Below are positions 9,001-12,000 of a stretch of 64,000 nt of DNA, piece by piece. The position numbers are program-made. Each line of letters opens with the position of its first letter. The first letter of the stretch is position 1. The DNA comes from Escherichia coli (GTDB lineage Bacteria; Pseudomonadota; Gammaproteobacteria; Enterobacterales; Enterobacteriaceae): the NCBI RefSeq assembly GCF_030013205.1, contig NZ_CP122648.1. The stretch is one strand, 5' to 3'.

Positions 9001-12000
9001 TTGTTAAGGCACTTAGCGGGTTTGTTGGTTTTGCGGTTGAACATCCCTGGCTTTTTGGGGCCGCAGTACTTGCTGGACCATCGAGAGTTGGTGCTGTGGC
9101 AGCCACAACGACCGGAGTTGCCGCCCGTGTTGTTGGTGGAAGTCTTCTTGGGGCTACAGCCGGAACAGTAGCTGGATTGGCTATTCCTACAAATGACACA
9201 CCTACCACCAGTGAGGAAATGAAAGGGCTGGAGGGGCGTTTCAACTTTGATTATTTTAACGAAGTGCAGGAGTGGCAAAAAAACAATCCGGGTAAGGTCT
9301 GGCCTGGAGGATTGCAGGGATTTTCAAATCAAGTAAACAGATCTGCATATTTATCCAGAGGGATCAGGAATAACAATCCCGGAAATCTTAATTTCGCAGG
9401 ACAAAAAGGGGCTACCCTGGAATCGGGGCCAAATGCCCGTTTTGCCAGCTTCCCGACGATGCTGGAAGGCATTGCCGCCTTAGATCGGCAGGTAATGCTA
9501 TACCTGAAACGCGGCAAAAATACGATTGATCAGATTATTGATATTTATGCCCCTTCATCTGATGGAAATAACACATCGTCCTATAAAAGCTATCTCTCTC
9601 AGTACACCGGATTAGGTGTTAAGGAGAAAATCGATGGTTCTAATTTTGAGGTCATGAAAAAGCTAATTCAGGGCATTATTAACCATGAAAATGGTGCTGC
9701 CGCTAAAGCTGTAAGTGTTGAAGATGTGATCCGGGCGCTGGCTATGAATCGTGGGATTGTCCCTGCAGCAGGAAACAATGATCAGAACGTTAAGTTGGAA
9801 ATTGTTCGGAACGCTGGTGCCGATTACTTCGCGCAACTAATTGGTGCTCAACGGTTCCTGGGATGATTTAAATACACGCGCTTTCCGGCGCATTAATACA
9901 GTCTGAGGGGAAGTGTCATGTTTATGAGCAAGGCAGAATATGCCAAACACAAAGGCGTAAGCCGCCAGACAGTTTACGACTGGATCGAGAAAGGCGAAGT
10001 GATCATGTCTGGCAAAAAAATTGATGTGGAAGCGACAGAGCAGCGGAACAGCCCACCAGCACAGGGAAAAGATACCGTTTCTGAAATGTGGCCAGAGAGA
10101 ACGCTGGAAATGACGTGGGGCGAGTTCTGGAAAGCAGTTAAGGCCAGAGACGGTAAAATCCCTGCACCAGTAACGGACAATGACATACAGCAGCGTGTAC
10201 AGGATGCAGCCGGGGAACTATGCTGTGAAGTGCAATTTCTTGATGATGGTGCTATCTGCCTTGAGGATTATGCTGGGCAATATTACTTTGAGCAGTATGA
10301 TTTTCGGGAAAATGCCAGGCTGGCAATTCGTATGCTGCGTTGTGAGCTCTGCTATGTTGCAGGTGATTGTCCCGATGAGCTGGATAACTGGAGTGAAGCC
10401 GGACTAAACGCCCTGGCTGAGTGGGAAAAATCAGGCCATCAATGACCTCAAAAAGTGTCAAGTTGAGCAGCTTGCCAGGTTGACACTTTACACTCTGAAC
10501 GCGAAAAAGTGTCAACCTCGCTGTAAGCCCCGCCATTACTGGCCTTTCGCCAGATTTACCACGTCAAAAAGCCGAAAAAATCGCGAAAAGTGTCAAGTTG
10601 CCATGCTTAGAAATGCTAAGGTTTGATAAGGTTTTTCGCGAAAAAGTGTCAAGTGTGTCAACCTGCGATGTTAAGATTTGTTAAGGTCTTAAGCCGGAAA
10701 GTGTCAACCAGCCCCCTAAGATTTCCTAAGGTGTAAACCATGACCATCACCGAAGCCGATTTGCTGGAGATGATCCGCAGCATTGCCGGAATCAAACAAC
10801 CAGCAAGCAAAATTAACAGGTGTTCAGCGCCTGTTTCCGTTGTGCTGCAGCAGGAACGCCACCAGCATGATGATGTGAGGCCGTATCAGTGGCGGAAACC
10901 GGACAGGCCGCGACGGTGAGCGGAACGTTCGGTAAGGCTACAGCCAAGCCAAACATTAAGCCTACGGGTAACCCTTCGAAGGGGCTTTAAAGGGGAGATG
11001 ATTATCCTTACCAGTTGATAAACAAGCAAACCTCAAATTTGAGGTTTGTATCTGCCTGACTTATTTTTGTGCTAAGTTGTTGATATATCCGACGACACAA
11101 ATTTGCGTTCTGTGGCTGGTGGTGGCGAGTTACGACCGATCATTTCCTTCCTGGCAGGTTACATCCTGCTGCTCAACTACTACGGTAGCCACTACGATTA
11201 ACTACGCGATGCCGATATGGGGATTCCCATATCGGTTTATCCGTGATCATCCACCAGCTTGATCACGGTTAACAGGGGATGTGTAATCCCCAAGCGAGTG
11301 ATAAATGTGTATAGAAATGTGTATAGAATTTATTTTAGAACTCGCGAATGCGCCTTTATTACTGGCCTTGTGGCTTGTTGTATTGTTCCCTTCGCCCGCT
11401 CCAGAATCTCCCCAGGTGGAGAAGACTAAAAAAGTCTTCTCTGTCAGCAACTTAAACAGTTACCTATTTAATTTGCTTAGGAGTTCTACCATTGTGATCC
11501 GCCCTTAGTAACTGTCACGTTAAGTTACTCGGTGAGATGACAGTATAACCTAACGTTGGCGGCAGTTGCACCTCTCACACCGCGATAGCACAACGTGAAG
11601 ATAAAGCCCATCCTGGCATTGTAATGTCATCGACAGACTGAACACACGCATTTAAGCCCGATGTGCGGCCTTGTGGCTGCGTAAACAGGTTTATGGTGAT
11701 ATTGGTCCTTGCAAACCATATGCAAGCTCTATCAGCGTTTCAGCCACGCTCCCAACGGGTACACGGTTATCCTGATAAGGTGTGATCTTTCTGACAATCT
11801 GATGAAGTCGCTACGCTCCCGCTTGTTGCTGTATCACCAACGGGGCTTTATGGTTTCTATTGTCTATAATAATCTCACAATTCCCCTGCATGAGGTTGAT
11901 ATGACTGTTAGCTACAAGATTACTTATGAGCATAGAGACGGTGATCAAATTAGAATGGAAGAGGTTTTATTCCATTCAGAGCATGAACCAACAAAAGATG

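Follow-up and report, generated by a model that had tools for sequence, protein, structure and literature searches.

The window analyzed here is a 64-kb stretch of the chromosome of ETEC4079, a porcine enterotoxigenic Escherichia coli (ETEC), and it contains a 14.3-kb island, designated island A. The island is bounded by a tRNA-Gly gene and an 18-bp att repeat, as delimited by the RefSeq annotation together with the direct repeat itself. Its genes encode, in order, an integrase, a hypothetical protein, an AlpA-like helix-turn-helix (HTH) regulator, AntA/B, an Icd-like protein, and DUF4222, followed by primase, ProQ, PerC, and a group of virion-like proteins. Next come a gene for a 175-aa protein, an array of short boxes, and a 59-aa open reading frame (ORF). 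The 175-aa gene and the array, which form the distal module of the island, are the subject of this analysis (Table 1). From their gene content, island A and its siblings have the architecture of Gram-negative phage-inducible chromosomal islands (PICIs): an integrase at the att site, a regulator of the AlpA-family type, a primase with an origin of replication, a size within ∼10 to 20 kb, and an incomplete set of virion genes. Pfam assigns AlpA only in the sibling locus L017 (compared loci carry L numbers), and the regulator of island A is annotated just as HTH.

The array begins 7 bp past the stop codon of the 175-aa gene and consists of three boxes, a conserved box-free segment of 71 bp, and four boxes, a layout that would suit a headful pac site. 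Six exact copies of the box AAAGTGTCAA plus an extra GTGTCAA core lie within 256 bp 3′ of the gene, with one copy inverted, in agreement with the first-pass annotation of this DNA, which had described six to seven boxes, one of them inverted, in the ∼260 bp after an HTH gene. Exact AAAGTGTCAA occurs seven times in the window compared to 0.26 ± 0.46 expected from dinucleotide shuffles, and none of 100 shuffles reached seven. The inverted box 2 can pair with box 1, leaving 18 nt between the arms, or with box 3 through 16-nt arms that are 94% complementary. When extended, the box consensus reads SSSR-AAAA-GTGTCAA-S-Y; the flanks of the core are nonrandom, which gives a site of ∼14 bp, R-AAAA-GTGTCAA-S-Y. 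Another exact AAAGTGTCAA stands alone at 1168-1177, between AntA/B and Icd; four sibling islands lack this copy, which is probably a chance occurrence.

Interleaved with the boxes of the right cluster are three exact copies of TAAGRTTTNNTAAGGT, compared to 0.05 matches expected when up to one mismatch is allowed. These copies are the triplet of TAAG motifs that the first-pass annotation had noted. Each is a pair of direct 5-mers spaced about one helical turn apart, and the third overlaps the ribosome-binding site of the 59-aa ORF. The repeat units that had been described as ∼50 bp long are real but diverged, with 70 to 81% identity and 45- to 65-bp spacing. Specifically, repeat finding recovered copies of 40 to 47 nt with 70 to 78% identity at 55- to 65-bp spacing, and 21-nt TAAG units with 76 to 81% identity spaced by 55 and 45 bp. 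Tandem Repeats Finder called no repeat in the array, as the diverged units fall under its threshold. The array has a GC content of 44.6%, with a minimum of 32.5% in any 40-nt window; the origin of island A has 30%.

The central segment was found in 165 of 5,426 complete E. coli genomes. In these genomes it occurs only inside satellite arrays, at 184 places, and all but one of these span 80% or more of the 79-nt query. Should cutting of DNA take place within the module, the segment would be the candidate region for it. Within it, positions 10518-10545 match 26 of 28 nt of a P1/RepFIB-type oriR spacer (L102 2500-2528), a marginal similarity (E = 0.08) obtained by relaxed BLAST. The matched spacer is GC-rich and belongs to the plasmid origin of phage-plasmids of the P1 family whose RepA is of the RepFIB type, where it lies between GATC-rich repeats and iterons; island A also has icd and antA/B genes that are P1-like. 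The match could reflect chance, a shared host-factor site, or old recombination.

The 175-aa protein consists of a Nu1-type winged HTH (residues 1 to 41), a variable linker, modeled as partly disordered (residues ∼42 to 58), and an orphan α/β domain (residues ∼60 to 175). The AlphaFold (AF2) model has a mean predicted local distance difference test score of 88.6, with the linker disordered around residues 46 to 54. Consistent with the HTH gene called in the first-pass annotation, the N terminus matched Pfam HTH_17, below the family cut-off, and the best PHROG match of the protein was PHROG 57, "terminase small subunit" (E = 1.3e-6). Residues 3 to 40 are 45% identical and 76% similar to residues 1 to 38 of the annotated Nu1-type terminase small subunit (TerS) of Serratia phage BZS1 (pairwise E = 3e-9). 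Structure comparison matched the N-terminal fold to lambda TerS, RppC, Xis, and BldC; the fold alone cannot tell a terminase-type from an excisionase-type role, but the sequence can. Full-length homology to TerS was not found: the PHROG 57 match covers residues 1 to 42 only, and tblastn against 50,697 phage records returned nothing. No gene for the terminase large subunit (TerL) is annotated in island A or its siblings.

Homologs of the 175-aa protein occur throughout the Enterobacterales, down to 34 to 35% identity. Residues 1 to 41 are almost invariant among them, and the remainder diverges. The recognition region, VSRQTVYDW, is near-invariant, which fits the invariance of the box. For the C-terminal domain, a set of 1.84 billion proteins yielded no more than 19 cluster representatives, of which one is an unrelated repeat protein and the others belong to the same family. 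Homology to the C-terminal parts of RppA or of the satellite Nu1-like proteins described below was not detected.

Table 1. Features of the packaging-recognition module proposed for island A and of its surroundings (window coordinates)
Feature	Position	Strand	Remark
175-aa protein gene	9918..10445	+	Two-domain protein; stop codon ends at 10445
C-terminal domain, residues 60-175	10095..10442	+	Proposed effector or docking domain
Box 1	10452..10461	+	AAAGTGTCAA, left cluster
Box 2, inverted	10480..10489	-	AAAGTGTCAA
Box 3	10506..10515	+	AAAGTGTCAA, left cluster
Central segment, box-free	10516..10586	.	71 bp with CTGTAAGCCCCGCCATTACTGGCC, between the 3-box left and 4-box right clusters
Box 4	10587..10596	+	Right cluster; followed by CTTAGAAATGCTAAGG
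Box 5 with abutting extra core (AAAGTGTCAAGTGTGTCAA)	10643..10661	+	Extra GTGTCAA core at 10655-10661
Box 6, last box	10698..10707	+	AAAGTGTCAA
Three TAAGRTTTNNTAAGGT motifs	10617-10632, 10672-10687, 10717-10732	+	Interleaved with boxes 4-6
59-aa ORF	10740..10919	+	Context, outside the conserved module
attR core of island A	11386..11403	+	Direct repeat of the tRNA-Gly 3′ end
Replication origin of island A	4212..4580	.	AT-rich, 30% GC; a dozen or so GTAGACAGTT iterons in both orientations, directly 3′ of the primase gene

The association of the box with the gene extends well beyond E. coli. Twenty loci were chosen by protein similarity alone (34 to 87% identity, many genera) from contigs representing one genome per species. 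In 15 of the 20, GTGTCAA clusters lie within ∼280 bp 3′ of the gene, and in most they are nearly absent from the other ∼20 kb. In the protein-selected loci with less than 70% identity, GTGTCAA occurs ∼7 times per kb in the first 300 bp compared to ∼0.06 times per kb elsewhere, an enrichment of ∼100-fold. The 7-mers that most loci share downstream of the gene are, without exception, fragments of AAAAGTGTCAACC, of the GTGTAAA variant, and ACGAAAC. The grammar of the array is kept as well: a forward box, ACGAAAC, and an inverted box are followed by the central GCC(A/G)TTACTGG, a forward box with CTTAGAAATGC, and a forward box with CCTAAGATTTCCTAA. The central core GCC(A/G)TTACTGG is conserved in diverged islands, the inverted box pair is kept in distant clades, and the unit of box plus CTTAGAAATGC is kept in a clade with 50 to 58% identity. 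Phased pairs resembling TAAGRTTTNNTAAGGT (TTGAG..TTGAG, GTTAG..GTTAG, and TTATG..TTATG) are found in a clade with 36 to 38% identity.

DNA related to the island is present in about 259 of the 5,426 complete E. coli genomes. Sibling islands that have the common backbone, the gene, and the array ahead of variable cargo include those of E. coli O104:H4 C227-11, EcPF14, and strain 361. A distant locus with the gene and array is found in Escherichia sp. ESNIH1, and the module also occurs in Pantoea, Rouxiella, Raoultella, Lelliottia, and Mangrovibacter, among others. Homology between islands begins at the start codon of the 175-aa gene and stops just past the last boxes, and the DNA beyond either end is variable; in sibling islands, the break lies just past box 5 or box 6, where the variable cargo starts. 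Dense clusters of GTGTCAA, GTGTAAA, and TTGACAC, with up to 12 cores, were also seen in AT-rich viral contigs of nonenterobacterial appearance (L046 3940-4360, L044 11670-11900, and L058 1020-1250), where a homolog of the HTH protein was not detected nearby; such clusters may reflect reuse of one DNA-binding specificity in an unrelated setting, or they may have arisen by convergence.

A scan of IMG/VR revealed that in some loci the same boxes are located upstream of another protein, of ∼186 to 209 residues. This protein and the 175-aa protein have the N-terminal HTH alone in common (44% identity; hhalign probability of 96% over 41 residues). The L066 protein is a full-length PHROG 57 TerS (E = 2.7e-23, aligned over residues 1 to 180), and its phage homologs are the TerS proteins of BZS1 and phiNP, each followed by TerL. 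The cosL of BZS1 is annotated at positions 1-12 as GCATTGCGCGCC, and the order of its cos site is a cosQ-like GGGTCC, cosN, three GGTAACA repeats, and the terS ATG; in phiNP, three GGTAACA repeats also occupy the cosB position. L061, L066, L069, L086, L098, and L103 have a cosQ/cosN scaffold of the BZS1/phiNP type, with GTGTCAA, GTGTAAA, and CTGTCAA boxes instead of GGTAACA. By sequence comparison, the box in these loci is located at the cosB position, between cosN and the Nu1-like gene, and TTGTTAAGGTC is present in the L103 cosB.

The elements that carry these cos sites look like satellites, not phages, where their flanks are sufficient for a comparison. No TerL gene follows the terS-like gene in L061, L066, or L069, and L098, which has the same flanking genes as L066, encodes a P4 α-like primase. 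L103 has AntA/B, primase, and PerC in common with island A at 70 to 77% nucleotide identity, and shares these together with int, the AlpA-like gene, and the integration site with the EcPF14 island (L003). The box thus located appears to be a satellite-specific address, distinct from the GGTAACA repeats of the related phages. One DNA-binding domain is found in three module variants: the 175-aa protein, a full Nu1-type TerS (L066 and L098), and a chimera with the Nu1 DNA-binding domain (L103, L061, L069, and L086). In a separate observation, the cos site and Nu1-like gene of L061 (6019-9300), and likewise of L038, L090, and L093, lead directly into small ORFs and then a tail sheath gene. Genes for TerL, portal, and capsid do not intervene, which makes for an odd, head-less layout that recurs in several contigs.

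The position of the module within the island can also be compared with that of EcCICFT073, the right end of which comprises cosQ-cosN-cosB (cos1), rppA, three ATGTCCGGTT repeats with an inverted cosN/cosQ (cos2), a 93-aa ORF, and attR; the functions of these parts have been described (PMC6739421, PMC6092414). The 59-aa ORF of island A is 50% identical to the 93-aa ORF over 22 N-terminal residues (E = 2e-6), and both end in a matching Y-W-K-P-R-RR tail. The alignment identifies the 59-aa ORF as a truncated homolog of this terminal EcCICFT073 ORF, which places the 175-aa gene in the rppA slot and the array in the cos2 slot.

On this evidence, we consider it probable, if far from certain, that the 175-aa gene and the array constitute the packaging-recognition module of a PICI-type phage satellite. 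A cosB/pac-like packaging module had been put forward in the first-pass annotation, and that suggestion gains support from the conservation of the box beside the gene across genera while the flanks diverge, from the cosB position of the box in sibling satellites, and from the rppA and cos2 slots. We found no description of the module in the PICI papers examined. The sequence comparisons show the anatomy of the module, the conservation of the box beside the gene, the homology of the DNA-binding domain, the cosB position of the boxes in sibling satellites, and the correspondence to the rppA and cos2 slots; in the mechanism that we propose, it is inferred only that the protein binds the boxes and contacts a terminase, how the DNA is cut, and which helper takes part. 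A helper phage would induce the satellite, which would replicate from its own origin. The Nu1-type winged HTH of the 175-aa protein would bind the ∼14-bp boxes (AAAAGTGTCAAS), probably with dimers on the inverted pairs and with cooperativity along both clusters of boxes, and the family-specific C-terminal domain would recruit or retarget the helper terminase. Satellite concatemers, and not helper DNA, would then be threaded into helper capsids. Since cosQ and cosN are absent, cutting would be either sequence-independent (headful, pac-like) or at a site that is unrecognizable by sequence. If it is headful, the box-free center between the 3-box and 4-box clusters would be the likely entry point. 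We therefore read the module as a probable variant of satellite packaging redirection, possibly a headful one.

Several findings weigh against the packaging-recognition reading, among them caveats that go beyond the first-pass annotation: cosQ and cosN are missing, and past the DNA-binding domain the protein is neither a TerS nor an Rpp. No cosN of the lambda, BZS1, or P2 type, the catalogued types covered by the search, is found close to the array, either in island A or in any of the 71 loci that have a full-length homolog. A cosQ-like GGGTCC is present within 400 nt downstream in 0 of 55 loci, and the order of gene and then boxes is the reverse of that in lambda, L103, and EcCICFT073 cos1. 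The C-terminal domain gave no significant or informative structural match in the PDB or BFVD, and it shows no detectable kinship to the oligomerization and TerL-binding regions of TerS or to the Rpp dimerization domain. The winged-HTH fold is also used by excisionases and transcription factors. The gene and array had no match in the 50,697 phage records, so that this search named no helper. Moreover, the IMG/VR loci were picked by box pattern and do not provide independent support for the enrichment of the box.

Individual cut-site candidates were rejected. A lambda cosN with one mismatch (19145-19156) lies inside a 124-aa ORF just upstream of a capsid gene and has no cosQ scaffold, and a BZS1-type cosN with one mismatch (61523-61534) lies inside araE without a cos scaffold; both are attributed to chance. 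A second BZS1-type match, with two mismatches at 4917, is within chance expectation. The window contains no P2/P4 cos, and a cos scan of the 71 homologous loci gave no consistently placed match. The gene and array were likewise without a match in 72,556 plasmid records, and EcCIMP1, a related PICI with the helper Kapi1, has neither the gene nor the boxes.

Four other functions for the module were weighed. The 175-aa protein could be a MerR/BldC-like repressor or activator, with the array serving as an operator for the cargo hotspot (the defense genes and the 59-aa ORF) or as an insulator against read-through. The array is indeed directly upstream of variable, mostly co-oriented cargo genes, BldC/MerR-type winged-HTH proteins turned up in the structure comparison, TTGACA, a −35 hexamer, is present in one strand of the boxes, and one source names a homolog "Repressor," an annotation that is unverified. 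However, a sigma-70 promoter scan found no promoter in the array, as no usable −10 follows any TTGACA, and in most boxes the strand with TTGACA is not that of the cargo. The array persists where the cargo has shrunk to a truncated ORF and a hairpin, identical boxes sit in the cos sites of sibling satellites, and seven sites over 256 bp with a conserved box-free center exceed the need of an ordinary operator. Transcriptional control is therefore unlikely in our view. The narrower alternative in the first-pass annotation, an operator for the 59-aa ORF, is disfavored because this ORF is missing from many array-bearing islands (L002 and L004 both lack it) and is a truncated homolog of a terminal PICI gene, and because the array is without a sigma-70-like promoter. 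Quite unlikely, too, is a role in interference only, in which the module would sequester a terminase subunit of the helper or of a rival satellite, or occupy a GTGTCAA-type cosB, without the island being packaged thereby. Rpp proteins do block helper packaging with a domain that is also used for redirection (PMC6739421), the box is common to other satellite lineages with complete cos sites, and the module has no cut site and neighbors defense cargo. Yet an ordered, conserved, cis-linked array that always adjoins the gene in many genera is hard to explain with a target in trans, and the helper-type phages examined use GGTAACA, not this box. By analogy with Rpp, interference may coexist with packaging.

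A secondary role in replication or maintenance, with the array as an iteron- or centromere-like element (a crr-like enhancer or a partition site) of the excised island, appears very unlikely to us. The arrangement of the repeats in two blocks and the 26 of 28 nt of the center that match a P1/RepFIB-type spacer between an unwinding element and iterons would suit such a role, and P4 requires a second cis site, crr, far from its ori. However, the P4 crr shares iterons with ori, and the array does not: island A has an evident origin beside the primase gene, with the different iteron GTAGACAGTT in DNA of 30% GC. The array, at 44.6% GC, is without an AT-rich unwinding stretch and in this differs from iteron origins; genes for Rep, ParA, or ParM are absent beside it; and the P1 match is statistically marginal. 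The array as the primase origin was rejected outright, given the separate AT-rich GTAGACAGTT origin right after the primase gene. Finally, the protein could be a recombination directionality factor, that is, an excisionase with the boxes as its binding sites in the attR arm, and it does have a winged-HTH fold of the Xis type. We regard this as extremely improbable. Variable cargo separates the array from the attR core, by 0.68 kb in island A, by 2.5 kb in L002, and by 3.35 kb in L017, and distances of this size rule out attR-arm or Xis sites; the boxes are absent near attL and int; and each island already has an AlpA-family gene beside int.

A broader form of the packaging-recognition reading is tentative, and we rate it as rather doubtful at present. 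In this form, the Nu1-type domain and the GTGTCAA box would be a portable address used by at least three satellite packaging lineages, with the C-terminal effector swapped to suit the helper terminase. The 175-aa protein would be a new adaptor, neither TerS nor Rpp, that gives PICI packaging without a cos site by a headful terminase. With a headful helper, the lack of cosN would be natural. Rac/pPE4-like myoviruses are possible helpers, and the hint comes from tail genes on island A: its 205-aa and 679-aa genes have 85 to 88% identity to genes in the tail region of pPE4, a Rac-like myovirus in which TerL is short (442 aa) and a cos site is not annotated. TerL size is linked to headful packaging, a relation that is suggestive only. 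As a carrier of the module itself, pPE4 was rejected: despite the tail genes in common with island A, it has neither a cluster of boxes nor a homolog of the 175-aa protein.

The surroundings of the module differ from island to island. Island A has four virion-like genes at 5813-9866 (a 195-aa gene, DUF2213, the 205-aa gene, and the 679-aa gene with a C-terminal transglycosylase), with 54 to 88% identity to genes in the gp46 region and to gp55 and gp56 of vB_Apl-pPE4, the Rac-like myovirus; sibling islands have other genes in this slot. The cargo just 3′ of the module is variable and has a defense-related look, with an AAA ATPase and DUF4435 pair in O104:H4 C227-11 (L002 16657-18613), the N terminus of an OLD-like ATPase in L069 (8709-10724), and an "RNA-binding domain" protein in EcPF14 (L003 16877-18865). 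At the junction of array and cargo lies another conserved noncoding element, CCGCTTYAGAAAACTTCAGG followed by TTGTCAAAACTTGTCACC, GCCAGCGGGGATTTTTGGC, and CTCTAAGTTACAGTTG (L004 ∼16300-16400, L002 ∼16320-16400, and L015-L021 ∼250 to 400 nt past the gene). This element is found in both close and very distant islands, is missing from island A, and may be a cargo-exchange junction or a leader. In island A, a perfect 11-bp palindrome (CAAACCTCAAA/TTTGAGGTTTG) at 11027-11048, 3′ of the 59-aa ORF, is terminator-like on the minus strand only; an Rfam scan of 9700-11500 returned no RNA families. A second element stands in tandem at 11404-26150, and its far boundary is a 23-bp copy of the tRNA-Gly 3′ end (26128-26150). 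It encodes a major capsid protein and a baseplate protein as well as a DNA invertase (13114-13665) and yecR, contains an IS3 insertion, and ends in a minus-strand integrase gene; it could be a capsid-forming-PICI-like or degraded element.

Many Enterobacterales satellites are not confidently classified because their packaging module is not recognizable, and the authors who described EcCIMP1 state of their own element that the packaging modules of such PICIs are unidentified (PMC11773190). The module described here is a concrete, testable candidate for one widespread satellite lineage, and it probably governs the horizontal spread of the defense cargo downstream. The ∼14-bp box and the series of three variants could be used to separate an "address" function from a "terminase docking" function. 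If cutting is headful, packaging redirection by Gram-negative PICIs would extend beyond cos helpers. Were the portable-address and headful proposal true, it would explain how many PICIs are mobilized without a recognizable packaging module.

Among known systems, the module can be compared with the Rpp (redirecting phage packaging) proteins and PICI-specific cosB of EcCICFT073-type PICIs (Fillol-Salom et al. 2019, PMC6739421), in which Rpp heterodimerizes with the helper TerS and blocks helper packaging via the same domain as that used for redirection. As in that system, a small satellite protein has an N-terminal winged HTH resembling the DNA-binding domain of the helper TerS (Nu1), and its gene, which follows the ori near the right end of the island, adjoins satellite-specific repeats unlike the helper cosB. 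However, a phmmer search of all PDB chains, including 6HLK and 6HN7, gave no match to the 175-aa protein, and hhalign against RppA aligned 29 HTH residues only, with a probability of 27%. The C-terminal domain is an orphan α/β domain, not the helical dimerization domain of Rpp, and the repeats of island A have another box sequence and no adjoining cosQ/cosN.

The lambda gpNu1/cosB system (R3-I1-R2-R1) has a homologous DNA-binding domain and short repeats, some inverted, that adjoin the gene. Similarly, the six to seven boxes of island A, as putative binding elements, adjoin a terS-like gene, as do the repeats of a lambda-type cosB. In contrast to gpNu1, only the N-terminal 42 residues of the 175-aa protein match PHROG 57, and the island lacks TerL and cosN; unlike in lambda and BZS1, its repeats are 3′ of the gene, not between cosN and the gene. 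The cos modules of sibling satellites have the same box and a homologous DNA-binding domain, and L103 also has the same backbone and slot, but they contain a BZS1-type cosN, their boxes precede the gene, and the C-terminal regions of their proteins bear no relation to that of the 175-aa protein.

The remaining comparison is with satellite TerS/pac systems such as the TerS of Staphylococcus aureus pathogenicity islands (SaPIs). The logic proposed here is alike, in that a satellite-encoded recognition subunit would direct the helper terminase to satellite DNA, and in island A two repeat clusters, of three and four boxes, flank a box-free segment beside the gene, with no defined cohesive-end site. 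The layout can be compared with the pac sites of SPP1 (pacL-pacC-pacR) and P1. The difference is that the 175-aa protein is not a recognizable full TerS. Beyond the DNA-binding domain it fits neither protein family, and by analogy we propose that the module would work like Rpp/cosB or like satellite TerS/pac.

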